From positions 1-41,804 of the forward strand of contig JAZRQH010000049.1 in the NCBI GenBank assembly GCA_045649645.1: DNA of 41,804 bases. Reading direction: 5' to 3'. How positions within the stretch are numbered: position 1 is the first letter of the stretch; each line of letters starts with the position of its first letter. The DNA comes from Eubacteriales bacterium. GTDB taxonomy: Bacteria; Bacillota; Clostridia; Oscillospirales; CAG-272. The position numbers were made by a program, and so were the translations under genes. The notes under the pieces are model-generated. The model did no database searches. It was not told the origin of the DNA and worked only from the letters and a program-made list of their open reading frames with translations. Positions 11,159 through 35,191 of this stretch are shown piece after piece.

Positions 11159-12102
11159 GATACTACGTTTTTAGGTGTTCCGTTAAGGAAGGAGCTTACG
11201 TTGTCGTCAACTATATCGAGGAGTCTTATTCTCGTTGACAGAGGTGCCCAGGCAACGTGAGGGGTCATTATGAGGTTGGGTACGGTGTCGTTCAGCACAC
11301 AGTCCTTGGTCTGAGGCTCGGTGGTGAGAACGTCGATACATGCGCCTGCGATCCTGCCCTCGCACAATGCTCTTACCAGTCCCTCCTCGTCGTTTACGCC
11401 GCCTCTTGCAGTGTTGACGTAGAGAGCCGTAGGCTTACAGAGACAGAAGCGCTCGTAGGTCATAAGCTTGGCTGTGCCCTCGTTCAGAGGGCAGTGAAGT
11501 GAAATGATATCCGACACAGCCATAAGCTCGTCAAGGGGCAGATATTCGGCGTCGTTATCTTTTATGGTTCTGGTATAAACAACGACCCTCATGCCGAAGG
11601 CTTTTGCTATCTCGGCAACCTTGCGTCCTATAGCGCCGTAGCCGATAATACCTATTGTTTTGCCCGCGATCTCGTCGGTAGGGAACACAAAGGGAGAGAA
11701 CATGGGTGACTTGCTCCAACCGCCTTCACGGACAAAGGTGTCAAATCTTCCCACTTTGCTGAAATGCTCCAGTATAAGAGCAAAGGTGTGCTGTGCCACA
11801 GCATCGGTAGAGTAGCTTCCCGCATTGCAGACGGTGATGCCGTGCTCACGGCAGTACGCCACGTCTATGTTGTTATAGCCTGTGGCAAAAAGGCAGATGA
11901 GCTTGAGATTCTTGGTCTGTTCAAGTACCTCACGGGTAAAAAGAGTCTTATTACAGATGGCTATGTCCGCATCCGATACACGCTCGGCTACCTCGCCCGG
12001 CAGGGTGTTATCGTACTTTATAAGCTCTCCGTATTTTGCAAAGATATCGATATCTACGTCACCCTGAGTGACGGTCATTGCGTCGGTTATTACTATTTTC
12101 AT
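11155..12102 (-). CDS. D-2-hydroxyacid dehydrogenase (glycerate dehydrogenase/hydroxypyruvate reductase-like)
   Basis: ATGYNNID, GYGAIG, NTARG, DVLTTEP and TPHVAW motifs. Confidence 0.9.
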   Translation of the reverse strand: MKIVITDAMTVTQGDVDIDIFAKYGELIKYDNTLPGEVAERVSDADIAICNKTLFTREVLEQTKNLKLICLFATGYNNIDVAYCREHGITVCNAGSYSTDAVAQHTFALILEHFSKVGRFDTFVREGGWSKSPMFSPFVFPTDEIAGKTIGIIGYGAIGRKVAEIAKAFGMRVVVYTRTIKDNDAEYLPLDELMAVSDIISLHCPLNEGTAKLMTYERFCLCKPTALYVNTARGGVNDEEGLVRALCEGRIAGACIDVLTTEPQTKDCVLNDTVPNLIMTPHVAWAPLSTRIRLLDIVDDNVSSFLNGTPKNVVS

Positions 12103-12129
12103 ATCGGTTCTCCTGTGTTTTATAGGTTA

Positions 12130-12193
12130 ATTGTATTATAAATTTCTCTTTTCGTCAATAACTATTGAAAAATTTAGTTAATTATGTTATTAT
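12130..12193. promoter_or_regulatory. Back-to-back sigma-A promoters (dehydrogenase on minus, lon operon on plus)
   Basis: Minus: TTGACG(12158-12153)-17-TACAAT. Plus: TTGAAA(12165)-17-TATTAT with TG. Confidence 0.6.
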
Positions 12194-12225
12194 AATATAA
12201 TAATATTATTCTATTGGAGATATCA

Positions 12226-14556
12226 ATGCCGCGTTATATAGAAAAACTTGAAATGATGAATATCACCTGTATCGTTGCACGTAACACCCTTGCATTTCCT
12301 TTTCTTCCTCTCAGCCTTGAGATAATAGGCGACGAGGACGTGGATGCATGCGAGGTCGCGTCGGATAATCAGGAATATATCTTTATACTTGCACAGAAGG
12401 ATCCTGCAATCGAAGAGGTAGAGGCAGCCGATCTTTACGAGGTGGGTACTGTATGCCGTATCAAGCAGTTTCTGAGACTGCCCGAGGGTAACGCCCGCCT
12501 TACCATAGAGGGTGTGTACCGCGCAAAGGTGCTTAACCTTGAAAAGCTCGAGGGCGTGTGGCGTGCCGAGGTCATGACCAAGGCTATCAACGTAAACGAA
12601 AATACCGCCAAGGCACAGGCTTTGCTCCGTGAGGTCAGCCTTCAGTTTGAGGAGTTCAAGAAGTACTCTCCCAAGCTTTCCGGTGAGATAATCGCCGCTG
12701 TCAACACCATCAAGGAGCCGGGACTTCTCTGCGACTTTATTGCCGCAAACGTACTGGTCGCCTTTTCGGACAAGCAGGCGATACTTGAGGTCTTTGACCC
12801 TATCAAGCGTCTTGAAAAGCTTGCGGTAATTATGGGCAGAGAGCTGAAGATCCTTTCAACCGAGCTCAATATACATAATAAGGTCCGTCAGCAGATAGAG
12901 GACAATCAGAGAGAATATTACCTACGCGAGCAGCTCAAGGTCATTCAGAATGAGCTGGGTGAGGGCGCAGGCGACAGCGAGATAGAGGAATACGATGAGA
13001 TGATATACAACGCTCATCTGCCTGAGGCTGTTGAAGCAAAGCTCTTAAAGGAGCTCAAAAAGCTTGCAAAGACCCCCTACGCATCCTCTGAGGCTGCGGT
13101 CATCCGCTCATATATAGAGACCTGTCTTGAGATACCCTGGTCTGTCACCACCGAGGACCGTGACGATATAGATAACGCCTCAAAGATACTTGAGGACGAC
13201 CACGACGGACTCAGTAAGGTCAAGGAAAGAATACTTGAGTTCCTTTCGGTAAAGAAGCTCAATCCCAAGTTGAACAATCAGATACTTTGTCTCGTAGGCC
13301 CTCCCGGTACCGGTAAGTCCTCTATATGCGAGTCTATCGCCCGTGCTCTTGAGCGTAAGTACGTAAGAGTCTGCCTTGGCGGTGTCCGTGACGAGGCTGA
13401 TATCAGAGGTCACAGAAGGACTTATATTGCATCTATGCCCGGACGTATAGTCAACGGACTCGTCCAGGCAGGAAGCCGTAATCCCCTTATGCTTCTCGAT
13501 GAGATAGACAAGCTCACCCGTGACTCCCACGGCGACCCCTCCTCGGCTCTGCTTGAGGTTCTTGATTCCGAGCAGAATCAGCATTTCCGCGACCACTTCG
13601 TAGAGATGCCTATAGACCTTTCCGACGTGCTGTTTATAGCGACGGCAAACAGTCTTGACACTATTCCCAGACCTCTGCTCGACCGTATGGAGATAATAGA
13701 GCTTGATATCTATAACAGATACCAGAAGCTTGATATAGCAAAGCATCACCTTATCCGTAAGCAGTTAAAGAAGCACGGACTTAACGGCAGACAGCTTCGT
13801 ATAACAGACGAGGCTCTCTTTGAGATAATAGACAGCTATACCCACGAGGCGGGGGTGCGTAACCTCAACCGTGAGATAGCCTCGGTATGCCGCAAGGCTG
13901 CCAAGCGTATCGTTACCGGTAAGTGTAAGAGCTGTACCGTGACCTTAAAGAACCTGCAAGAATATCTTGGCACAAAGAAGTTAAGTGACCGTAAGATAGC
14001 AGATGCCGATCAGGTAGGAATCGTAAACGGCCTTGCATATACTCAGCTTGGCGGTGACATACTCAAGATTGAGGTTGCCGCAATGAAGGGCACGGGCAAG
14101 CTTGAGCTTACCGGCTCTCTGGGTGACGTTATGAAGGAGTCGGCAAGAACAGCCGTTACCTGCATCAGACAGAGAAGCGAAGCTCTCGGTATAGACCCCG
14201 ATTTCTATAAGGACAAGGATATTCATATCCACGTGCCCGAGGGCGCAGTTCCCAAGGACGGTCCCTCCGCAGGCGTTACCATGGCGGTGGCTCTTGCAAG
14301 CGAGCTCTCCGGCAGAAGGGTAAGACGTGACGTTGCAATGACGGGTGAGATAACCCTCAGAGGTAACGTGCTTGCCATCGGCGGCTTAAAGGAAAAATCC
14401 ATGGCAGCTCTTAAGGCGGGAGTAAAGACGGTGCTTATCCCCCGTGAAAATCTCCGTGACCTTGAAGAGGTAGATAAAACAGTTAAAGAGGGAATAGAGT
14501 TCATCGCCCTCGATAATATAGACGATGCCCTGAAGGCGGCATTGACAGAGGAATAA
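12226..14556 (+). CDS. lon: ATP-dependent Lon protease
   Basis: GPPGTGKS, LLDEIDK, HIHVPEGAVPKDGPSAG (Ser) and GGLKEK (Lys). ATG at 12226 follows GGAG. Confidence 0.96.
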   Translation: MPRYIEKLEMMNITCIVARNTLAFPFLPLSLEIIGDEDVDACEVASDNQEYIFILAQKDPAIEEVEAADLYEVGTVCRIKQFLRLPEGNARLTIEGVYRAKVLNLEKLEGVWRAEVMTKAINVNENTAKAQALLREVSLQFEEFKKYSPKLSGEIIAAVNTIKEPGLLCDFIAANVLVAFSDKQAILEVFDPIKRLEKLAVIMGRELKILSTELNIHNKVRQQIEDNQREYYLREQLKVIQNELGEGAGDSEIEEYDEMIYNAHLPEAVEAKLLKELKKLAKTPYASSEAAVIRSYIETCLEIPWSVTTEDRDDIDNASKILEDDHDGLSKVKERILEFLSVKKLNPKLNNQILCLVGPPGTGKSSICESIARALERKYVRVCLGGVRDEADIRGHRRTYIASMPGRIVNGLVQAGSRNPLMLLDEIDKLTRDSHGDPSSALLEVLDSEQNQHFRDHFVEMPIDLSDVLFIATANSLDTIPRPLLDRMEIIELDIYNRYQKLDIAKHHLIRKQLKKHGLNGRQLRITDEALFEIIDSYTHEAGVRNLNREIASVCRKAAKRIVTGKCKSCTVTLKNLQEYLGTKKLSDRKIADADQVGIVNGLAYTQLGGDILKIEVAAMKGTGKLELTGSLGDVMKESARTAVTCIRQRSEALGIDPDFYKDKDIHIHVPEGAVPKDGPSAGVTMAVALASELSGRRVRRDVAMTGEITLRGNVLAIGGLKEKSMAALKAGVKTVLIPRENLRDLEEVDKTVKEGIEFIALDNIDDALKAALTEE

Positions 14557-14558
14557 TT

Positions 14559-15155
14559 ATGGCATTGAATTTACAGAACGTAAAGCTTGAGATGACCGCA
14601 GGTCTTAAAAGTCAGTTTCCCAAAAACGACCTGCCTCATCTTGTATTCTCGGGACGCTCAAACGTGGGCAAGAGCTCGCTTATAAACACACTTCTCGGCA
14701 GAAACAAGCTGGCAAGAGTGTCCTCCGCTCCCGGTAAGACAATTACTATAAACTTCTATAACGTTGACAACAAGTTCTACTTCGTTGACCTGCCCGGCTA
14801 CGGCTTTGCTAAGCGTCCTCCCAAGGAGAGAGCTATATGGCAGAAGCTTGTAAACGACTATATGGTGGAGGCAGGCGAAAGAAGTGCTCCTATGTTCGTT
14901 ATGCAGCTGGTCGATATGAAGGTGGGTACTACTGCTGACGACTGTATGATGCTTGATTGGCTCAATGAGACCGAGACCGACTATATGATAGTTGCTACAA
15001 AGTCTGATAAGCTCAACGCTACCCAGAAAAAGGCTCAGTACGAGGAGCTGACTAACCACGAGCTCATCCGTGAGGGCACCGAGATAATACCTTTTTCCGC
15101 CCTTAAGGGTGACGGCAAAAACGAGATCTGGAACGCTATCAACAAGATAGTTTAA
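14559..15155 (+). CDS. engB: Ribosome biogenesis GTPase EngB/YsxC
   Basis: GRSNVGKSS, PGKT, DLPGYG and TKSDK; conserved lon-ysxC order. Confidence 0.95.
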   Translation: MALNLQNVKLEMTAGLKSQFPKNDLPHLVFSGRSNVGKSSLINTLLGRNKLARVSSAPGKTITINFYNVDNKFYFVDLPGYGFAKRPPKERAIWQKLVNDYMVEAGERSAPMFVMQLVDMKVGTTADDCMMLDWLNETETDYMIVATKSDKLNATQKKAQYEELTNHELIREGTEIIPFSALKGDGKNEIWNAINKIV

Positions 15156-15165
15156 GGAAGGGTAA

Positions 15166-15840
15166 ATGTTAAGCTCACTTTTAAGAAACGGTTTTTCTGC
15201 CGATGCACTTATTATGGTGCTGTGCAGTATTCCGATAATCATACTTGCCCTTTGCGTACACGAGTCAGCTCACGGTATCGCAGCAAAGTGGATGGGCGAC
15301 CCGACGGCTTATAATTTGGGTCGTATAACTCTTAACCCGGCAAAGCACCTTGATCCCATAGGCGCGATACTGATGTTTGTGTTCGGATTTGGTTGGGCAA
15401 AGCCTGTTCCTATAAATACAAGATATTTCCGCAATCCCAAATGGGGCATGGCGATTTCAGCCTTTGCAGGGCCTATGTCAAACGTGCTATGCTCCTATCT
15501 GTTTTATATCATTGCGGCACTTATAGAGAGGTATGCAGTTCCCGGCAGTCAGCTGTCAGCAAATATTCTGACTGCACTTCTGATATTCTGCATAGTGGGC
15601 TATACCCTCAATCTTTCGCTTGCGGTATTCAATCTTATCCCTGTGCCGCCCCTTGACGGAAGCCGTATACTATTTGTGTTTCTTCCCGCAAAGGCATATT
15701 TTGCCGTGATGAAATATGAAAGATTTATCTATATGCGCGTGCTCGTGCTTGTTATGACGGGTATGCTGGATACTCCTCTTGCCCTTATTCGGCAGGGAAT
15801 TACAAATCTGTTTGAATTATCTATAGCTTGGATGGTATAG
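15166..15840 (+). CDS. Site-2 protease (M50) membrane zinc metalloprotease
   Basis: HESAH, GWAKPVP, AGP and FNLIPVPPLDG motifs. Confidence 0.9.
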   Translation: MLSSLLRNGFSADALIMVLCSIPIIILALCVHESAHGIAAKWMGDPTAYNLGRITLNPAKHLDPIGAILMFVFGFGWAKPVPINTRYFRNPKWGMAISAFAGPMSNVLCSYLFYIIAALIERYAVPGSQLSANILTALLIFCIVGYTLNLSLAVFNLIPVPPLDGSRILFVFLPAKAYFAVMKYERFIYMRVLVLVMTGMLDTPLALIRQGITNLFELSIAWMV

Positions 15841-15841
15841 A

Positions 15842-16594
15842 ATGTCAGAATCATTGAATTTTAAGCTTGAGATATTCGAAGGTCCTCTTGACCTTCTGTT
15901 ATCTCTTATATCTAAAAACAAGGTCGATATATACGATATCCCCATATCCCTTATTCTCGATCAGTACCTTGAGTACCTTGAACAGATGCGCAGGATGGAT
16001 ATGGAGGTGGCGGGTGAGTTTATAACCATGGCTTCTGAGCTTATGCTTATCAAGAGCCGTATGCTCCTGCCCAAGTCACCTCTCGAGGAGGACGTAGACC
16101 CCAGAGAACGTCTGGCTCAGGCACTTATTGAATATAAGCGTGCCAAGGAAGCCGCAGTGATGCTCAACGAAAATTATATGAAATATGCAGGTCGTATAGC
16201 CAAGCCTATGGACGAGGCGCCCTTCCAGGCTATCCCCGAGCTTGCAGATCAGGATGCCAAGCTCCTTGAGGAGGCTTTTGCAAGGCTTATGCATAGAGCA
16301 AAGCAGCTTAAGGAAACAATGCAGCCTCCCGAAAAGACCCTTGAAAACCTGCTGAAAAAGCGCGTTACCCCCGTTCCCGAGCGTATCGTGGGTATAATGA
16401 GATATCTGTACAAAAACGGAAGAACGAGCTTTGACGACCTTATGCTTCAGTCAAGGACACGCTCGGATATCATAGCATCCTTTGCGGCTCTGCTTGAGCT
16501 TCTCAAGGCAAGGCGAGTTATGATAGCAAAGGACGACGGTGACGAGATCGTATTAGAGCTTAATAAGAGAGGTAAGGACTCAAATGAGCAATAA
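15842..16594 (+). CDS. scpA: Segregation and condensation protein A
   Basis: FEGPLDLLLSLI, IKSRMLLP and FAALLELLK motifs. Confidence 0.94.
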   Translation: MSESLNFKLEIFEGPLDLLLSLISKNKVDIYDIPISLILDQYLEYLEQMRRMDMEVAGEFITMASELMLIKSRMLLPKSPLEEDVDPRERLAQALIEYKRAKEAAVMLNENYMKYAGRIAKPMDEAPFQAIPELADQDAKLLEEAFARLMHRAKQLKETMQPPEKTLENLLKKRVTPVPERIVGIMRYLYKNGRTSFDDLMLQSRTRSDIIASFAALLELLKARRVMIAKDDGDEIVLELNKRGKDSNEQ

Positions 16595-17159
16595 GAATGA
16601 AAATATACTTGAGATAGAGCGTACCATAGAGGCTCTGCTCTTTGCTACGGGCGATCCCATTACATACGAAAAGATAGGCTCGCTTCTGGAGCTTACTCCC
16701 GGTCAGGTAAAGAGCATTACCCTTGATATGAAGGAGAATTATACCGACAGAGGTATTCAGCTTCTTTGCTACGATACAGCCTGCCAGCTCTGTACCAAGG
16801 AAAAATATGAGGATGTGATCAAGGATTGCCTCGGTATCAAAAAGAACGGAGCCCTCTCCAAATCAAGCCTTGAGACCCTTGCGATCATTGCCTACAATCA
16901 GCCTGTAACGAGGGCCTACGTTGAGGAGGTCAGAGGCGTTGACTCCGCCTATGCCTTCGGTATTCTCTTACAGAGAGAGCTTATCGAGATCAAGGGAAGA
17001 CTTGACGTGCCCGGCAGACCTAACCTTTACGGCACGACAAAGGACTTTTTGAGGATATTCGGTCTTTCTTCGATAAACGAGCTTCCTAAGGTAGAGGTTC
17101 TTGCCCCTGCCGAGGATCAGGCACAGACAGAGCCTGCCGAGGAAAAAAACGAGGACTAA
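16584..17159 (+). CDS. scpB: Segregation and condensation protein B
   Basis: IEALLF, LETLAIIAYNQPVTR and PGRPNLYGTT..FL..FGL motifs. Confidence 0.95.
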   Translation: MSNKNENILEIERTIEALLFATGDPITYEKIGSLLELTPGQVKSITLDMKENYTDRGIQLLCYDTACQLCTKEKYEDVIKDCLGIKKNGALSKSSLETLAIIAYNQPVTRAYVEEVRGVDSAYAFGILLQRELIEIKGRLDVPGRPNLYGTTKDFLRIFGLSSINELPKVEVLAPAEDQAQTEPAEEKNED

Positions 17160-17205
17160 ACCTCTGTATATAAGACGATAATCTAAGGAAAGGGAGGCGG
17201 TATCT

Positions 17206-17820
17206 ACGGTTTGGTTATGGATAATTGCGGCAGTTGTTGCCCTGATACTGCTTGCACTTTTCAGTAACGTAAGGATATATATCGTATACGATAAGGAGCT
17301 TTACTCCTATTACCGTGTTTTCTGGCTGTACAAGGATCAGCTCTATCCCGAAAAGGGTCCCGAAAAATATATATCCGCAAAAAAGCTAAAGAGCAGAGGA
17401 AGGAAACTTCACAAAAAGAGGACCAAGCGTCTGACCGACAAAAAGGATACTATCGGTGAGGTGTTTACCGACGTTAAGGATATGGTCACCGAGCTTCTGG
17501 AACTAATATATATCATCTTAAAGAAATTTCTCGGAAAAGTGGATATCAAGGTGCGTAAGCTGGATATAACCGTATCCACCGAGGATGCGGCGGCAACCGC
17601 TCTTACTTATGCTCTGGTGTGCGACTCTCTCAATATTCTTGTAGATATGCTCAGAAACACCGACCGCATCAGCTGTAGCTTTAATAAACTTGAGTGCAGA
17701 TGCGACTACACCGAAACGCAGTTCAAGGCTGAGGTGGACGTTCTTATCAAGATAAGAATAATCCAGGTCATCCGCGTACTGTTTGATTCAATGATGGAAC
17801 AAATTAAAACGACTATATAG
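17206..17820 (+). CDS. YtfI/DUF2953-family membrane protein, apparent ACG start (204 aa; the track reports only 17461-17820)
   Basis: Frame is open from the TAA at 17179-17181. GGGAGG SD at 17192-17197 lies 8 nt before ACG, followed by VWLWIIAAVVALILLALF (TM), a basic linker and a DAAATAL motif. Located upstream of ytfJ. Confidence 0.75.
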   Translation, partial: TVWLWIIAAVVALILLALFSNVRIYIVYDKELYSYYRVFWLYKDQLYPEKGPEKYISAKKLKSRGRKLHKKRTKRLTDKKDTIGEVFTDVKDMVTELLELIYIILKKFLGKVDIKVRKLDITVSTEDAAATALTYALVCDSLNILVDMLRNTDRISCSFNKLECRCDYTETQFKAEVDVLIKIRIIQVIRVLFDSMMEQIKTTI

Positions 17821-17836
17821 ATCGGAGGAAAATAAA

Positions 17837-18286
17837 ATGGAAAACAAGATCAGCGACATTATCAGAACATCCCTTGAAAACGTCAAGGACGTCGTTGACA
17901 GCAATACCGTTATCGGTGAGGCTATCCCCACCACAAACGGTACTGTCATTATCCCTGTTTCCAAGGTTTCTATCGGTATCGCCACAGGCGGTCTCGATTA
18001 CAAGGGCAAGCGTGCGAAGGAACAGCCTGTCAAGACTAACAATTTCGGCGGTGCAGGCGGTACCGGTGTTACCGTTAAGCCTGTAGCGTTCCTTGTAGTT
18101 AAGCCTGACGGCGGTGTTGATCTGCTTAACGTAGACCATCCCACAGAGGGCTCGGGCGACGATACGGTTGAGCTCATCGCTTCCTTTATCCGTAAGTCTC
18201 CCGACCTTATTGCCAAGCTTAAGGCATTCTTCAAGAACGACCTTGGCTTTGCACCCAAGGGTGACGGAGAAAATTCGGCAGAATAA
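17837..18286 (+). CDS. ytfJ: Sporulation protein YtfJ/GerW
   Basis: NTVIGEAI, IIPVSKVSIG..GG and FGGAGGTGVTVKPVAFLVV motifs. Confidence 0.9.
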   Translation: MENKISDIIRTSLENVKDVVDSNTVIGEAIPTTNGTVIIPVSKVSIGIATGGLDYKGKRAKEQPVKTNNFGGAGGTGVTVKPVAFLVVKPDGGVDLLNVDHPTEGSGDDTVELIASFIRKSPDLIAKLKAFFKNDLGFAPKGDGENSAE

Positions 18287-18334
18287 GCGGACACGCCCCG
18301 TCATATAGTGTAGTAAAAACTGTATGCGGGGTGT
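18281..18334 (+). promoter_or_regulatory. Sigma-E promoter plus SD-sequestering hairpin for dacB
   Basis: GAATA-16-CATATAGT. A 16-bp stem (18293-18309 with 18319-18334) covers the SD GGGGTG. Confidence 0.65.
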
Positions 18335-18337
18335 ACT

Positions 18338-19465
18338 ATGAAGCTAAAAGCAATAATTTCTATAATACTGATCCTTTCTCTGACCTATTTTTGTGTGGGT
18401 GCATCGGGTGTCGATTACGGCAAAGCGATGGAAACGATTTCACTGTCGGGTACGTCAGCCGAGAGCTGTGTGCTCTACTGTCTTGACACAGACGAGGTGG
18501 TGTATGCCTCTGATGAGCATAAGCGGCTTCCCATGGCAAGCACGACCAAGATAATGACGGCGATAGTAGTACTGGAAAACGCGGACACAGAGGACGTTAT
18601 AACCGTCCACAAGGATGCCGTGGGTATCGAGGGCTCCTCTGCTTATCTTATGAAGGGGGAGAGGGTCAGCATCAAGGACCTGCTTTATGCTTTGATGCTT
18701 GAGAGCGCTAACGATGCGGCAACCGCTCTTGCGATAGCAGTTGGTGAGGACATAGAGAGCTTTGTTTCTTTGATGAACTCTAAGGCCTGCGAGATAGGTA
18801 TGAAGGATACAAGTTTTACCAATCCCCACGGCCTTGATGATGAGGCACACTATTCTACGGCATACGATATGGCTCTGCTGTGTGATTATGCAATGGACAA
18901 TGCTGATTTTGCGGATATTGTGTCAAGCTATAGATACGAGACCGACAGCCGTCTCTTTGTAAACCACAACAGGCTTCTTAAGACCTGCGAGGGTGTTATC
19001 GGCGGCAAGACAGGCTTTACCAAGCGCAGCGGCAGATGCCTTGTGTCGGTTGCAAGGCGTAACTCAGTTACCATGTGCGCTGTCACCTTAAACGACCCAA
19101 ACGACTGGAAGGATCATAAGGCGCTTTATGACGCAGGTTTTGACGGTTACCAGACGCTTAGCTTAAAGGGTGGGGAATACACTATTCCTGTTATAAACGG
19201 CAATCGTGATACGGTTACCGTTACTGCTCCCGATAGAGAGCTTGTATGCAAAAAGGAAAATGCAGACTCTGTCAGCGTAGCCGTTTGTCACGACAGATTT
19301 ATCTACTCACCCGTAAAAAAGGGGGAAACGGTAGGTTATCTCGTATATTCGGCAGACGGCGAGGAGATAGCGAGAACAGAGCTTAAAGCTGCAGAGGATA
19401 TATCTAAAATAAAAAAGAAGACTTTTATAGAAAAAATAATTTCAGGATTGATATGGAACAGATAA
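18338..19465 (+). CDS. dacB: D-alanyl-D-alanine carboxypeptidase (peptidase S11, DacB-type sporulation PBP)
   Basis: Signal peptide; PMASTTK (SxxK), SAN (SxN) and GKTG; scpAB...dacB...rluB synteny. Confidence 0.85.
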   Translation: MKLKAIISIILILSLTYFCVGASGVDYGKAMETISLSGTSAESCVLYCLDTDEVVYASDEHKRLPMASTTKIMTAIVVLENADTEDVITVHKDAVGIEGSSAYLMKGERVSIKDLLYALMLESANDAATALAIAVGEDIESFVSLMNSKACEIGMKDTSFTNPHGLDDEAHYSTAYDMALLCDYAMDNADFADIVSSYRYETDSRLFVNHNRLLKTCEGVIGGKTGFTKRSGRCLVSVARRNSVTMCAVTLNDPNDWKDHKALYDAGFDGYQTLSLKGGEYTIPVINGNRDTVTVTAPDRELVCKKENADSVSVAVCHDRFIYSPVKKGETVGYLVYSADGEEIARTELKAAEDISKIKKKTFIEKIISGLIWNR

Positions 19466-20175
19466 GATTACAGAAGTTTGTTGCCGAATGCGGTGTAATG
19501 AGCCGCCGTGCAGCAGAAAAGGAAATAGAGGCAGGAAACATAACCGTAAACGGTGAAGCTGTTGAGGTGGGCAGAGTTATCGATCCCGCCAGAGACAAGG
19601 TAAGATTTAAGGGAAGACCGGTTATGCGTAAGCGTAACAGCCACAAGGTTTACCTTATGCTCAACAAGCCCCGCGGATACGTTACCACTATGTCTGACGA
19701 TAAGGACAGAAAGTGCGTTGCATCCCTTGTCAAGGACGTGGGGGAGCGCGTATACCCCGTTGGCAGACTTGACTACGAGAGCGAGGGTATGCTTATAATG
19801 ACCAACGACGGAGATCTTGCAAACAAGCTTATGCACCCCGCTCATCACGTTCCCAAGACCTATAACGTAAGGGTTGAGGGCAGTGTGACCAAGGAACAGC
19901 TTGCGCTGCTTAGCTCTGAGATGGTAATAGATGACTATAAGATAAAGCCTGTTGAATGTAAGATACTGCGCTCCAAGAACGGATATACCGTTCTTGAGAT
20001 GGTGCTCCACGAGGGCAGAAACAGACAGATAAGAAAAATGTGCGAGCAGGCAGGCCTTGAGATATCCTACCTTCGCAGGATCGCCATAGGCACTATCGAG
20101 CTTGGAGATCTGCGCGCAGGACAGTGGCGTTGGCTTACAAAGGAACAGATAAAGTATTTAAAGGAGTATAAATAA
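19453..20175 (+). CDS. rluB: 23S rRNA pseudouridine synthase RluB/RsuA family
   Basis: S4 domain RLQKFVAECGVMSRR; NKPRG, PVGRLD and EGRNRQIRKM motifs. Confidence 0.88.
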   Translation: MEQIRLQKFVAECGVMSRRAAEKEIEAGNITVNGEAVEVGRVIDPARDKVRFKGRPVMRKRNSHKVYLMLNKPRGYVTTMSDDKDRKCVASLVKDVGERVYPVGRLDYESEGMLIMTNDGDLANKLMHPAHHVPKTYNVRVEGSVTKEQLALLSSEMVIDDYKIKPVECKILRSKNGYTVLEMVLHEGRNRQIRKMCEQAGLEISYLRRIAIGTIELGDLRAGQWRWLTKEQIKYLKEYK

Positions 20176-20567
20176 TGCTGGAGGTATATCCTATTCAAGA
20201 TAAGGCAGAGCAGGCTGAGCTTTGCGAAAAGGCAGGGATAGTATACGATGCTGATAAGCTTGCTTACAAGGGGATCGTCGGCGGAGAGCTTATAGGCGTT
20301 GCGCAGTTCGGCATCAAGGGCAAGTGCGGCTATATCTACGATCTTGAAAATATCAAGGGTATTGATAACGAGGAGGTCCTCTTCGTTATGGGCAGAGCCG
20401 CTCTTAACTTTATCGATCTGTGCGGTATTACCGACAACTATTTTGAAGCAAGAGACGAGGGCAGAGAAACCCTTGTTTCCCGTATCGGCTTCAAAAAGAA
20501 CGGGTCGGATAAATGGTATATGAATACACAGGGGTTCTTTACCGAGCCCTGTAAGTGTGAGGGCTGA
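20175..20567 (+). CDS. Hypothetical protein, possibly degenerate GNAT-like fold
   Basis: 130 aa; AAGGAG SD; overlaps the rluB stop; native codon usage. Confidence 0.7.
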   Translation: MLEVYPIQDKAEQAELCEKAGIVYDADKLAYKGIVGGELIGVAQFGIKGKCGYIYDLENIKGIDNEEVLFVMGRAALNFIDLCGITDNYFEARDEGRETLVSRIGFKKNGSDKWYMNTQGFFTEPCKCEG

Positions 20568-20585
20568 TCTATCAGCCCTCATTTT
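20558..20585 (+). terminator. Intrinsic terminator ending the lon...rluB unit
   Basis: TGAGGGCTGAT/ATCAGCCCTCA followed by TTTT. Confidence 0.7.
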
Positions 20586-20642
20586 GTACATAGTGCCAAA
20601 AAATGGCAGGAATATTTGTTACAAATTTTTACCAGTTTTCTA

Positions 20643-20671
20643 TTGCAATATTTCCCATAATATGGTAATAT
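20643..20671 (+). promoter_or_regulatory. Sigma-A promoter of spo0A
   Basis: TTGCAA-17-TAATAT with TG extension. Confidence 0.55.
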
Positions 20672-20709
20672 ATAGGAGTAATAAATAAAAAATAACGGAG
20701 CGTGTAAAA

Positions 20710-21489
20710 ATGGAGCATAATGTTAAGATACTTGTCGCAGATGAAAACAGGGAGTTCAGACGAAGCTGTAGGGATAACCTTATGGGCTTCGGTTACCGTA
20801 TGGTAGAGGAGGCCTCTGACGGTGAGGAGGCTATGTTTCAGATAGAGAAGCATCATCCCGACATCGTTATTATGGACGTGTGGATGGGTAAGGTGGAGAC
20901 CCTGAACGTTATCCGCAACTGCGCCAGACTTTCCTACGGGGAGGACAATCCGCCTTCATTTATAATTACTTCTATAGTCAATAATCCCAATATGTTCAAC
21001 GAGCTGTCCGATGCGGGAGCACAGTACTGTGTGCTCAAGCCTCTGGACTACACCACCCTTCACGAGAGAATAAGAAGAATATACGAAACAAGAGTCAAGG
21101 ACGGTCGATATGCCTCAGCTATGCCCGAACCGTGCGAGGACCTTGAAGCACAGGTAACAAAGGTGATACATCAGATAGGCGTACCTGCGCATATCAAGGG
21201 TTATCAGTATCTCAGAACAGCTATCCTGATGACCATAGTTGACAGCGAGATGATAAACGCTGTTACAAAGATACTCTATCCCTCTGTGGCAAAGAAATAT
21301 CAGACCACGTCGTCCCGTGTTGAGCGCGCAATCCGTCACGCTATCGAGGTAGCTTGGGATCGCGGAGATATAGACGTGCTTAACTCCTATTTCGGTTATA
21401 CGATACATAACAACAGAGGTAAGCCTACCAACAGCGAGTTTATTGCAATGATCGCCGATAATCTCAGACTTACAAACAAGCTATCATAA
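20710..21489 (+). CDS. spo0A: Sporulation master regulator Spo0A
   Basis: Receiver domain plus C-terminal [32 protein letters not shown] and [13 protein letters not shown]. Confidence 0.97.
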
Positions 21490-21515
21490 ATGCACCCGTT
21501 TGGGTGCATTTTTTT
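21488..21515 (+). terminator. Intrinsic terminator after spo0A
   Basis: AAATGCACCC-GTTT-GGGTGCATTT followed by a T-run. Confidence 0.85.
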
Positions 21516-21535
21516 ATATTTCCTCGCATATCTAT
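21506..21535 (+). promoter_or_regulatory. Putative sigma-E promoter of the spoIIIA operon
   Basis: GCATT-16-CATATCTAT; spoIIIA is sigma-E dependent in studied spore formers. Confidence 0.5.
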
Positions 21536-21550
21536 GTTGTGGGTGATGTA

Positions 21551-22408
21551 GTGAACAAGCTTGACGGATATCTGTCTACCGATATTTTAACCGAGTTAAA
21601 GGGTCACGGTAGAATTAACGAAATCAGACTTAAGCGGAATTCTCCTGTGGTTATTAAAAAGGATGACCGATATATCAGACTTAACACAGTAACCGACTCG
21701 GACAGCTTTGACGTGATTCTGGACAAGTTACTTGAGCATTCTTATCATTCAAAGTTATCCGGTCTTATTGAGGGGTATATAGCCCTTGGGGAGGGTTACC
21801 GTGTGGGGGTTGCGGGACAGGCGGTGTTGCGAAACGGGACGGTCGCTAACTTAAGTGAAATCGGCTCCGTTAATATACGTATTCCTCATATAATAAGAGG
21901 TATCTGCCAGCCTGTGATCCAATATCTGAGTTTAACGAATTTCAGAGCCGGCGTGCTTATATATTCTCCTCCGGGGGTAGGTAAGACAACTCTTTTAAGG
22001 GATCTTATACTGACTCTTGCCACAGCTCCGAACTTTAAGCGTTTATCGGTCATAGATTCACGTAACGAGCTCTACCACCCCTGTATGTCAGATCTGCCCA
22101 TGCTTGATATCTATACGGGATATCCTAAGCATAAGGGTATAGAGCAGGCTATACGTACTATGGCACCCGATATTGTTATATGTGACGAGATAGGAAACGA
22201 CGAGGAGACCCAGGCTCTGCTCGCCAACCAAAGCGCAGGTGTACCGATAATAGCCAGCGCACACGGAGAAAGCTATTCTTCACTTATAAACAGAAGCAAT
22301 ATACAGAGGATGGACGAGCGTGGAGTGTTTGGGTGTTATATCGGTATCAAGCGCAGATCCTCCGGTGAAAAATACGATTTTGAGTTCACGGAGTCACAGA
22401 ATGTATAG
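21551..22408 (+). CDS. spoIIIAA: Stage III sporulation ATPase AA
   Basis: EIRL, GYRVGVAG, SPPGVGKTTLLRD, IDSRNE, CDEIG and SAHG. GTG start follows GGGTGA. Confidence 0.92.
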   Translation: MNKLDGYLSTDILTELKGHGRINEIRLKRNSPVVIKKDDRYIRLNTVTDSDSFDVILDKLLEHSYHSKLSGLIEGYIALGEGYRVGVAGQAVLRNGTVANLSEIGSVNIRIPHIIRGICQPVIQYLSLTNFRAGVLIYSPPGVGKTTLLRDLILTLATAPNFKRLSVIDSRNELYHPCMSDLPMLDIYTGYPKHKGIEQAIRTMAPDIVICDEIGNDEETQALLANQSAGVPIIASAHGESYSSLINRSNIQRMDERGVFGCYIGIKRRSSGEKYDFEFTESQNV

Positions 22409-22853
22409 ATATACTGCGATCTTTATTATATTGCTCATATCATTGTATACAGCACTGTGCATAACGCGTTACGGCAGAGAAAAGATAAGCTTTCATATTG
22501 CTGTGATAGACTTTATAACCTACGTAAAGCAGCAGATAACCTTCTTCTGTACACCTACAAATAAGCTGATAGAGGAATATCACGACACGAAGCTGCGTGA
22601 AAGCGGAATTTTTTCAAGTGACGGTATTGAAGCAAACGTTTATCTTGATGCGCGTGGTAAAAAACTCTTGAAGGATTTTTTTGCAAGGCTTGGCAAAAGC
22701 AGTGCGGAGGATCAGATAGCAAGCTGTGATTATACAATAGAAGGATTGAACGCTCTGCTGACTGAATACAGATCGGATATACCAAAGAAATATAAGGTCT
22801 ATTCAACGCTGACTCTGATAGCGGGATCAATGCTGTTAATTCTTTTGATATAG
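22401..22853 (+). CDS. spoIIIAB: Stage III sporulation protein AB
   Basis: Position, N- and C-terminal TM segments, LGKSSAEDQ motif. ATG at 22401 follows GGAG. Confidence 0.8.
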   Translation: MYRYTAIFIILLISLYTALCITRYGREKISFHIAVIDFITYVKQQITFFCTPTNKLIEEYHDTKLRESGIFSSDGIEANVYLDARGKKLLKDFFARLGKSSAEDQIASCDYTIEGLNALLTEYRSDIPKKYKVYSTLTLIAGSMLLILLI

Positions 22854-33217: not shown

Positions 33218-34104
33218 TAATTAATATTGATATCTCCCGCAAGGGAAAAACGGTTAAGGAAATACTCTTTGGCGAGCTTGGGCTTTCGAGAGGTCAGGTC
33301 GTATCCCTTAAAAACGGTGACGGTATCCGTGTCAACGGCGAGCACGTTACCGTTAGGTATGTTCTCAAGGAGAATGATATACTTGAACTTGATGTTGAGG
33401 ATAGCGAAGAGGATATGAACGATCATATCACGCCTGTAGAGATACCTATTGATATTCTTTATGAGGATGAAGATGTGGTATGTGTCAACAAGCCCTCGGG
33501 TATGCCTACTCACCCATCACATAACCATCATACCGACACCCTTGCAAATGCGTTGGCGTATTACTACGCTCAAAAGGGAATCCCCTTTGTTTTTCGTGCG
33601 GTCAACCGACTTGACCGAGAGACCAGCGGCGTTGTTCTTGTTGCCAAAAACAGAGCCGCATCCGCCAAGCTTTCAAAAAGCCTTCAGGAAAACAAATTTG
33701 AAAAGATATATTATGCCGTGGTCTGCGGCATACCTGAAAAGGAACAGGGAAGGATCATAGCATATATATCCCGAAAAGAGGGCAGTATCATATTCAGAAA
33801 AGCCAGTGAAAGCGGTAAGGGATCTGAATATGCCGAGACTCTTTACTGCTGCAAAGAATATTATGATGATCACACCCTTCTGGAGGTCAAGCCTATAACG
33901 GGCAGAACTCATCAGATAAGGGTTCATATGCAGTATATCGGTCATTGTATATACGGTGACGGCTTGTACGGTGCCGAAGCGCGGGAGGGACTTATGCTCC
34001 ACGCGTCATCTCTTGCCTTCCCGTTGCCTGACGGCAAGACGATCACTGTTTCTGCACCCCTGCCGCACAGATTTAAGATATTCAGGAGAAATGATGAAAT
34101 TTAA
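33214..34104 (+). CDS. RluA/RluD-family pseudouridine synthase
   Basis: ILYED, NKPSG, NRLDRETSG, TGRTHQIRVH and LHA. ATGA overlap with the rqcH stop. Confidence 0.92.
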   Translation: MIINIDISRKGKTVKEILFGELGLSRGQVVSLKNGDGIRVNGEHVTVRYVLKENDILELDVEDSEEDMNDHITPVEIPIDILYEDEDVVCVNKPSGMPTHPSHNHHTDTLANALAYYYAQKGIPFVFRAVNRLDRETSGVVLVAKNRAASAKLSKSLQENKFEKIYYAVVCGIPEKEQGRIIAYISRKEGSIIFRKASESGKGSEYAETLYCCKEYYDDHTLLEVKPITGRTHQIRVHMQYIGHCIYGDGLYGAEAREGLMLHASSLAFPLPDGKTITVSAPLPHRFKIFRRNDEI

Positions 34105-35191
34105 AGGATTTCTTGATAAATATTTTTCAGCGATATCGCGATTTTGTATGCTGCTTGCGGCCCTGTCAGCCGTGATATTGGTCATATCGAAGCTGTCAGA
34201 AGGATTTTCCGACTGGTTCAACAGATACGTCAGCTCCTTTTGCCGCCTGATTATATCCAAGATAACAGGGGTTCTGCCTTTTTCTTTGGGCGAAGCTATG
34301 TTTCTTTGCTTGCCCTTGTTTATATTTATAGCGCTGTTTATATATTTTAAGGTATGCTATGAGGATGATATCAAGGCAGGCAGATTTATAGTGTCACTTG
34401 TTACCTGTCTCTCACTTATGTTCAGCTCCTTTGTCTTTATGTTCGGAGTTGCTTATAACGGCTCGCCTCTTGAGGATAAGCTGGGTCTTGAGGCAAAGGA
34501 CGTGATCTATAGCGAGCTTGAGCACACCGCCGACTGTCTTGTTGACGAGATAAATGAAGTCATTGATGAGGTTGAGTATATATACGACGGCTCGTCAACC
34601 ATGCCATATTCCTTTAAGGAGCTTAACGTTAAGCTCAATGATGCCTATGATTCCTTTAGCCGGAAGCACAGCTTTGTTCCTAAGCTTAGATCCAACGTCA
34701 AGATCCTTGCAGTAAGTCCGATAATGACCTATACCCATATATCGGGTATATTCACTTATTATACGGGTGAAGCAAACTTAAATATAAACTACCCCGATTA
34801 TTCCATGCCTTATACTATGGCACACGAGATGGCGCATCAAAGAGGTGTAGCTCCTGAGAACGAGGCAAACTTTGTTGCTTTTTTAGTATGTCTCGAATCA
34901 GAGGATGACTATATCCGCTACAGTGCGGCTATGAGTATGCTTGAGTACGTTCTTTCGGCAATGCACAAGGCATCAGCTGATGAATATAACAGCTATATCT
35001 CTGACATGGACCTGCGCATAAGAGGAGAATTGGTAGCGTTCTCAACCTTCTTTGACAGATACAGGGACTCGGTTGCATCAAACGTTACCGATACGATAAA
35101 CGATACCTATCTCAAGGCTTCGGGTGATAATGCGGGCTCTCAGAGCTATGGAATGGTGGTGGATCTTGCCTGTGCGTATTATGCCGATTAG
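34091..35191 (+). CDS. DUF3810-family membrane-anchored putative zinc metallopeptidase
   Basis: N-terminal TMs, PFSLGE, TGEAN and HEMAHQRG...ENEANF. ATG at 34091 follows AGGAG. Confidence 0.8.
   Translation: MMKFKGFLDKYFSAISRFCMLLAALSAVILVISKLSEGFSDWFNRYVSSFCRLIISKITGVLPFSLGEAMFLCLPLFIFIALFIYFKVCYEDDIKAGRFIVSLVTCLSLMFSSFVFMFGVAYNGSPLEDKLGLEAKDVIYSELEHTADCLVDEINEVIDEVEYIYDGSSTMPYSFKELNVKLNDAYDSFSRKHSFVPKLRSNVKILAVSPIMTYTHISGIFTYYTGEANLNINYPDYSMPYTMAHEMAHQRGVAPENEANFVAFLVCLESEDDYIRYSAAMSMLEYVLSAMHKASADEYNSYISDMDLRIRGELVAFSTFFDRYRDSVASNVTDTINDTYLKASGDNAGSQSYGMVVDLACAYYAD

Follow-up and report, generated by a model that had tools for sequence, protein, structure and literature searches.

A 41,804-nucleotide (nt) stretch of DNA from an Eubacteriales bacterium (GCA_045649645.1, contig JAZRQH010000049.1, positions 1 to 41,804; hereafter the window) carries, between the sporulation gene ytfJ and a gene for a dacB-like DD-carboxypeptidase (dac), a 16-bp RNA hairpin whose 5′ arm consists of promoter-like sequence and whose 3′ arm contains the Shine–Dalgarno (SD) sequence of dac. 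We consider it probable that this hairpin serves as an RNA-level insulator for the carboxypeptidase gene. RNA entering from upstream, whether a ytfI-ytfJ sporulation transcript or a longer operon transcript, would contain both arms, and in this long RNA the SD would be held in a 16-bp helix by the RNA copy of the promoter spacer and -10 box, leaving dac untranslated. The gene's own promoter, of putative sigma-E type, would start RNA in the loop, at about position 18315, and this mRNA would have the 3′ arm only and a free SD. The following parts can be distinguished at the junction:

18281-18285, + strand: -35-like GAATA of the putative sigma-E-type promoter, which shares bases with the ytfJ stop codon TAA and is invariant in 10 of 10 loci of the genus.
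18286-18301, + strand: promoter spacer of 16 nt, whose C-rich 3′ part (18293-18300) is, from the fold and the covarying pairs, the anti-SD half of the 5′ arm.
18293-18309, + strand: 5′ arm, ACGCCCCG-T-CATATAGT, with T18301 bulged in the minimum free energy (MFE) and the centroid structure.
18302-18309, + strand: -10-like CATATAGT, upper half of the 5′ arm; nine of the 10 genus loci share it exactly, and it matches the sigma-E -10 of Clostridioides difficile.
18310-18318, + strand: loop GTAGTAAAA, 9 nt, with the transcription start predicted at about A18315 from C. difficile promoter geometry.
18319-18334, + strand: 3′ arm, ACTGTATGCGGGGTGT, from sequence reading and RNAfold.
18328-18333, + strand: SD GGGGTG, read from the sequence 4 nt 5′ of the ATG at 18338, with all of its bases paired in the long RNA.

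Positions 18293-18309 pair with 18319-18334 through 16 bp that include 8 G-C pairs and two G-U pairs (G18295-T18332 and T18306-G18322), with one bulged T and a loop of 9 nt. In RNAfold, both the MFE and the centroid structure are this hairpin, at -24.6 kcal/mol; none of 200 dinucleotide shuffles was as stable (mean -12.75, z -4.59), and the hairpin still forms in a 221-nt context. The stem begins 7 nt past the ytfJ stop codon and is followed by only two T within 8 nt on its 3′ side, with no U-tract. The original prediction, made from the letters of the window, had placed the arms, the bulge, the loop, the two G-U pairs and the SD exactly here and had read the left arm as the spacer and -10 of a GAATA-N16-CATATAGT promoter; all of this was recovered, the promoter sequence lying at 18281-18309 and being kept throughout the genus. 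Rfam covariance models applied to 17000-19600 at E values of up to 1 gave 0 matches.

The energy of the hairpin is not rare, its placement is. The whole assembly (235 contigs) was folded on both strands with a span of 60 nt, a total of 4,150,842 strand-bases, and 1011 non-overlapping local structures reached -24.6 kcal/mol or lower. Among plausible gene starts, only 24 had their SD within the 3′ arm of a single hairpin of -20 kcal/mol or better, and dac ranked third among them. We expressed SD accessibility as the unpaired probability averaged over positions -15 to -5 relative to the start and considered an SD occluded at values of 0.2 or less. The SD window of dac has an unpaired probability of 0.00 in the long RNA, versus a median of 0.45 in 500 control genes with a good SD, among which 1 reached 0.01 or less and 35 reached 0.2 or less. 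It is also the lowest value among the 45 starts in the window, the next lowest being 0.19. In an RNA begun at the predicted +1, the value for dac increases to 0.36. The junction had been presented in the original prediction as the clearest case of a pattern; no other of the 45 starts in the window stands out, although there are other clear cases on other contigs of the assembly.

YtfJ is present in 60 of 61 related genomes; of 30 loci retrieved, 28 have a dac gene behind ytfJ. The helix, together with GAATA-N16-CATA, is present in each of the 10 species of the genus, the -10 being CATATAGT in nine of them and CATACTTT in one. In three loci (L007-L009), the spacer is 11 nt longer, and a downstream GAATAA keeps the 16-nt distance to CATATAGT: L007 and L009 contain GAATAA twice, as a stop-codon copy and a downstream copy, and L008, whose stop region reads GACTGA, contains the downstream copy only. 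Given that the second GAATAA restores the 16-nt spacing after the insertion, it speaks for selection on the promoter. Pairing is kept where the arms change, as in L009 (CCCGTC/GACGGG to CCTGTC/GACAGG) and L008 (GCCCCG/CGGGGT to AACCCG/CGGGTT).

A covariance model built from the six closest sequences recovers all 10 species of the genus, and the alignment fitted by this model was used because plain MAFFT of the 10 genus sequences misaligned the 3′ arm of L007-L010. In the model-fitted alignment, 86.5% of 155 cells are paired, and 6 of the 16 pairs change on both sides (12 cells). For four of five covariation measures, 0 of 500 shuffles matched the observed value, and controls with slid partners were 30–55% paired. 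The covariation of both arms, proposed with the original prediction as a way to check it, is thus present in the model-fitted alignment and weak when the six closest sequences are aligned by plain MAFFT. Outside the genus, this model gave no match in 80 further loci at E values of up to 1 (the best scores in L011-L030 were 11–13 bits, with E above 0.8), and therefore the sequence homology of the hairpin ends at the genus. A metagenome scan with the YtfJ protein returned 338 pattern matches, none of which was confirmed. As a separate observation on the promoter spacer, the motif GGACA (18289-18293) is kept in L001-L006 and L009; we take it to resemble the core of the SpoIIID box.

The architecture recurs in the family and the order although sequence similarity is lost. 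We compared three sets of loci: 27 of 30 loci in set 1 (L015 was dropped for want of an in-frame start, and L023 and L026 because they have no dac), 20 of 30 order-level loci in set 2 (nine had no dac match, and L051 had no SD-bearing start) and, in set 3, 70 loci from Oscillospiraceae, Eubacteriales and Clostridia metagenome-assembled genome records, remaining from 80 fetched after removal of six without a dac match, two without an SD-bearing start and two duplicates. The SD window was at most 0.2 unpaired in 17 of 27, 11 of 20 and 34 of 70 loci, respectively, amounting to 62 of 117 ytfJ-dac spacers. Among control genes located 35–150 nt behind a co-directional open reading frame (ORF), 11 of 100 had such values; overall, occlusion in the controls affected 7–11% of genes. 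The ytfJ starts of the same loci provided a further control, with none of 26 at 0.2 or less and a median of 0.52. A sigma-E-type motif (described below) scoring at least 10 out of 12 was present in 22 of 47 spacers of the first two sets and 28 of 70 of the third. In 44 of these 50 motif-bearing loci, all bases that pair with the SD in the MFE structure are located 5′ of the predicted +1, and SD accessibility in motif-bearing loci goes from about 0.1–0.2 to about 0.5 in RNA begun at +1. Clear examples of the architecture with unrelated sequences are found in L045, L058, L094 and L119.

The mapped sigma-E promoters of C. difficile read (G/T)(A/C)ATA, 16–18 nt and CATA(T/C)AnT, and GAATA-N16 with a similar -10 occurs in the sigma-E rows of spoIVA, CD2445 and CD3494 (PMC3789822, Table S7). 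The sequence at dac, GAATA-N16-CATATAGT, scores 12 out of 12 on the sigma-E-type motif, which we defined ourselves on the basis of the C. difficile promoters. In the ytfJ-dac loci, scores of at least 11 were found at 16 of 2737 spacer positions versus 12 of 260461 other positions, and the score of 12 was found 11 times in spacers versus 0 times in the background. The C. difficile sigma-F/G rows share GAATA or GTATA at -35, their -10 ends in AATA or ACTA, and their CATA-type box lies about one nt further from the -35 than that of sigma-E; the sigma-K promoters have AC, not ATA, at -35 (PMC3789822, Tables S6 and S7). Since the motif fits C. difficile sigma-E better than sigma-F/G or sigma-K, sigma-E is the best fit for the factor that would read the dac promoter, in line with the type proposed in the original prediction; this assignment comes from the motif.

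The start itself was positioned from five C. difficile rows examined by eye (spoIID, spoIIID, spoIVA, CD2445 and CD1884), in which the mapped transcription start site (TSS) is the sixth nt after the 8-mer (PMC3789822, Table S7). Transferred to dac, this geometry predicts +1 at about 18315, inside the loop, where it had been expected to fall. For Bacillus subtilis, ytfJ is assigned to sigma-F and dacB to sigma-E, the latter as had been claimed with the original prediction (PMC3416734; PMC517825), and dacB is given as repressed by SpoIIID (PMC517825). The C. difficile gene CD1291 (dacF) was considered as a TSS-mapped orthologue and rejected: it adjoins a small acid-soluble spore protein gene, not ytfJ. 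No other carboxypeptidase entry is found in the C. difficile sigma-E promoter table.

The source of the RNA that the insulator would silence had been suggested to be a vegetative lon...rluB mRNA. An equally or more likely source is a ytfIJ sporulation transcript, given that ytfJ belongs to sigma-F in B. subtilis. With ytfJ under sigma-F and dacB under sigma-E in that species, the hairpin may mainly keep a mother-cell enzyme from being made off a forespore transcript, by analogy with B. subtilis. The ytfJ SD is open (26 of 26 loci), so vegetative read-through RNA would still translate ytfJ. As no U-tract follows the stem in the genus, RNA polymerase probably reads on, and such read-through past the stem would permit transcription of the closely linked rluB from upstream. 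Given that rluB closely follows dac, some transcription through dac is probably needed for rluB.

Several points weigh against the hairpin being an insulator of this kind. Starts outside the genus were picked by rule or by eye, the rule agreeing with curation in 44 of 47 cases, with some error. The architecture is not universal: the SD window exceeds 0.2 unpaired in 55 of the 117 loci; 67 of the 117 spacers have no motif scoring at least 10, and the genus supplies 9 of the 11 perfect motif scores. Related genomes are kin, and these counts overstate independence. All control genes were drawn from this one genome. The covariation alignment was fitted to the structure by the model and leans towards structure; with plain MAFFT on the six closest sequences, two pairs change on both sides, which 166 of 500 shuffles equal. 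Even in RNA begun at +1, the dac SD is only 0.36 unpaired. Finally, 15 of the 117 relatives have a T-run after the stem, which is terminator-like there, and L008 and L009, within the genus, carry U-rich tails.

The last two points favour a different function, in which the hairpin ends or stabilizes the ytfI-ytfJ transcript, as a factor-assisted or U-poor terminator or as a 3′ protective stem; the overlap with promoter and SD would then be a by-product of the short spacer, and the insulation would be transcriptional. We consider this unlikely. In its favour, the stem starts 7 nt behind the ytfJ stop, the last 12 nt ahead of the start codon contain TTTT in 9 of 47 loci and in 6 of 70 (15 of 117, versus 22 of 500 control genes), and the analogous spoVT hairpin of this genome precedes TTTTTATAT. 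It is likely that termination is the mode in some lineages. In the genus, where 0 of 10 loci have TTTT before the start, the hairpin does not look like a normal terminator, in line with the original prediction; in the 15 relatives with a T-run it does. Further against termination, the hairpin in the window was not listed by the terminator scan, and the organism uses canonical terminators with long T-runs, such as the one after spo0A (21488-21511). Moreover, rluB would depend on a promoter within dac, where only weak sigma-70-like matches were found, and a pure terminator needs no SD in its 3′ arm, yet the SD is so placed in 62 of 117 loci. A role in translational coupling, in which the dac SD would be opened only by ribosomes that complete ytfJ and unwind the lower part of the stem, so that one mRNA would yield dac in proportion to ytfJ, is very improbable. 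The ytfJ stop does lie 7–8 nt from the 5′-most SD partner in the window and in seven other occluded loci, but the distance between stop and helix varies (median 15 nt; above 15 nt in 12 of 28 occluded loci; 15–17 nt in L007-L009). From the usual ribosome footprint, a ribosome stopping 7 nt away is estimated to open only the first few of the 16 pairs. The spacer also contains a separate conserved promoter motif, and in B. subtilis ytfJ and dacB belong to different compartments, neither of which suits coupling.

The inverted repeat could also act as DNA, as a palindromic operator through which a dimeric protein regulates the dac promoter, or be a chance feature without function; we find either scarcely credible. 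In their favour, the repeat overlaps the promoter, B. subtilis dacB is described as SpoIIID-repressed (PMC517825), and GGACA is conserved in the spacer. However, the sense strand folds better than the antisense strand in 42 of 47 loci, by a mean of 5.2 kcal/mol, and in 10 of 10 loci of the genus, because the G-U pairs make the fold strand-specific, which argues that the element acts as RNA and not as a DNA palindrome. Relatives maintain the pairing through wobble pairs and register shifts that a DNA site could not tolerate, and the architecture is kept while the sequence of the repeat is lost; chance is countered by the shuffles, none of 200 folding as well. A further possibility concerns only the sigma factor: the promoter would be real but read by sigma-G/F or sigma-K, and the enzyme would be a dacF-like forespore enzyme, leaving the logic of the insulator unchanged and the compartments different. 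This is rather improbable. In its favour, GAATA is frequent at -35 in C. difficile sigma-F/G promoters as well, L027 has GAATA-N17-GAAAATAA, with both boxes of the mapped C. difficile dacF sigma-G promoter, and no family model separates DacB from DacF. On the other hand, the genus -10, CATATAGT at N16, matches the sigma-E rows of CD2445 and spoIVA, and neither the CATA-type -10 of the sigma-G rows, placed about one nt further and ending in AATA or ACTA, nor the AC at -35 of sigma-K promoters agrees with it.

The insulator would act within a compact neighbourhood of co-directional genes, of which three lie nearest the hairpin:

17837-18286, + strand: ytfJ, a GerW family sporulation protein gene (Pfam Spore_YtfJ, 7.8e-20), with its stop codon TAA at 18284-18286.
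18338-19465, + strand: S11 DD-carboxypeptidase gene, dacB-like (Pfam Peptidase_S11, 4.8e-55, and PBP5_C, 5.5e-10), whose product has a hydrophobic, signal-peptide-like N-terminus.
19453-20175, + strand: rluB-like pseudouridine synthase gene (Pfam PseudoU_synth_2 and S4), overlapping the end of dac by 13 nt.

Against NCBIfam TIGR02874, the ytfJ product scores 111.6 bits, slightly below the cut-off of 116.3. The dac start lies 51 nt behind ytfJ. Pfam matches give the order on the + strand as lon (12214), a GTPase gene (14559), a gene for an M50-like protein (15166), scpA (15842) and scpB (16584), followed by an ORF without a family, ytfJ, dac, the rluB-like gene, a 130-aa ORF, spo0A (20710) and spoIIIAA. 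Neither Pfam nor NCBIfam had a match for the ytfI-like ORF or for the 130-aa ORF after rluB, and NCBIfam gave the dac product sub-threshold matches to generic DD-carboxypeptidase models only. DacB and DacF are not told apart by any NCBIfam model here; the name dacB is therefore contextual and draws on the family, the synteny and the promoter type suggested by the sequence. The B. subtilis dacB presumably lies in the same scpA/scpB ... rluB neighbourhood.

The gene order downstream of dac is also stable: in 44 of 46 loci the next gene is rluB, usually -46 to +60 nt from the end of dac, and in the genus it overlaps dac or lies 1 nt behind it in 7 of 10 loci and 9–15 nt behind it in the other three. 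This spacing, a 13-nt overlap in the window and gaps of 1–15 nt in the other genus loci, leaves no room in the genus for an rluB promoter of its own between the two genes. A scan of the + strand from lon to the gene after rluB found no canonical terminator, an indirect sign that read-through transcripts may exist, the only clear one within 12000-22500 being that after spo0A. This terminator, with its long T-run, overlaps the listed TTG start (21500) of the spoIIIAA ORF, and thus the true spoIIIAA start is probably further downstream. The ORF in the ytfI position, between scpB and ytfJ, is open on the + strand from 17182 to 17820, and encodes a hydrophobic N-terminus from about 17209, preceded by GGAGG at 17193-17197; nevertheless, the first ATG, GTG or TTG does not appear until 17461, which suggests an unusual start codon or a sequence error.

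Elsewhere in the genome, 10 of the 24 starts with the SD in a hairpin were annotated. A gene on contig C193 for a CwlD-like Amidase_3 protein of 237 aa, which starts about 60 nt downstream of a 276-aa ORF of the same direction without a Pfam match, has a hairpin of -25.8 kcal/mol (z -6.5) at 34093-34139 on the minus strand; its 5′ arm contains GAATT-N16-CATATATA and its 3′ arm the SD, GGCAGGTGA. The spoVT gene on contig C115 closely follows a co-directional ORF; in its hairpin of -24.7 kcal/mol (z -5.4; 22604-22658, minus strand), the 5′ arm includes GTATA-N17-GATACTA, of sigma-F/G type, and the 3′ arm includes AAGGAG, and the T-run after it makes it a terminator-shaped version. The spoVT helix was seen by eye, with changed sequence, in about half of 28 related loci, several of them from other genera (L163, L164, L170, L172, L176 and L178), and the SD window was at most 0.2 unpaired in 8 of the 28, the fixed window being off-centre for the spoVT SD. 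In a gene for an ABC-ATPase of 665 aa on contig C42, the SD lies in a hairpin of -24.3 kcal/mol (1090-1144, + strand) whose 5′ arm overlaps a sigma-70-like TTGCAA-17-TACAAT, so this build may also occur with a vegetative promoter.

The promoter-in-hairpin build was seen in three genes of the genome, dac, the CwlD-like amidase gene and spoVT, and the dac and spoVT versions recur in other genera. We tentatively entertain, without considering it the likelier case, that such insulators are a general grammar of sporulation genes located behind co-directional genes in gut Clostridia, with or without a U-tract. Were this so, genes would be expressed from the compartment-specific promoter only, and a single transcription unit could mix mother-cell, forespore and housekeeping genes. 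For dac, the insulator, if it works as proposed, would show how sporulation genes specific to a compartment and a time can be kept from leaking inside the tight operons of small genomes: a putative mother-cell cortex enzyme would be encoded between ytfJ, a forespore gene in B. subtilis, and a housekeeping rRNA-modification gene. The conserved anti-SD segment in the promoter spacer is also a possible way to locate sporulation promoters in uncultured Clostridia. For dac itself the prediction is precise: +1 at about 18315 and translation that depends on removal of the 5′ arm.

The closest known counterpart is sigG (spoIIIG) of B. subtilis, the sole case that surfaced in a limited literature search, which found no description of a hairpin at dacB. 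There, a very large hairpin is proposed to block translation of sigG from spoIIG read-through transcripts, and it cannot form in transcripts from the sigG promoter (PMC5942855). Both are sporulation genes just downstream of another operon, and in both the hairpin is absent, or would be absent, from the transcript of the gene's own promoter. They differ in the gene and the sigma factors and have no sequence relation, and the sigG hairpin has 20 or more bp versus 16 bp here; the sigG case is backed by cited experiments and the dac case by comparison. In phage T4, the long early transcripts of the genes e, soc (both named in PMC3014915), 49 and I-TevI fold their SD and/or AUG into a helix whose 5′ strand is encoded by the region that contains the late promoters; the arrangement is conserved in related phages, and a 100-fold reduction is cited for gene e (PMC3014915). 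That system is a phage temporal programme with a phage sigma factor, gp55, and a measured effect, whereas dac would be a case of bacterial development, with no homology between them.

Like an intrinsic terminator, the dac element is a G+C-rich stem-loop directly after a stop codon, with a T-run in 15 of 117 relatives, but unlike one it has no U-tract in the window or in the 10 genus loci, and its 3′ arm is the SD of the next gene. In IS10-type fold-back, external transposase transcripts pair an upstream segment with the translation start, and the element's own transcript escapes; IS10 is a mobile element, whereas dac is a chromosomal developmental gene. Given that the same logic is documented for sigG and the T4 genes, the dac hairpin adds to a known mechanism rather than constituting a new one, and would widen its range, hitherto phage T4 and a single B. 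subtilis gene, to a conserved locus of more than a hundred species.

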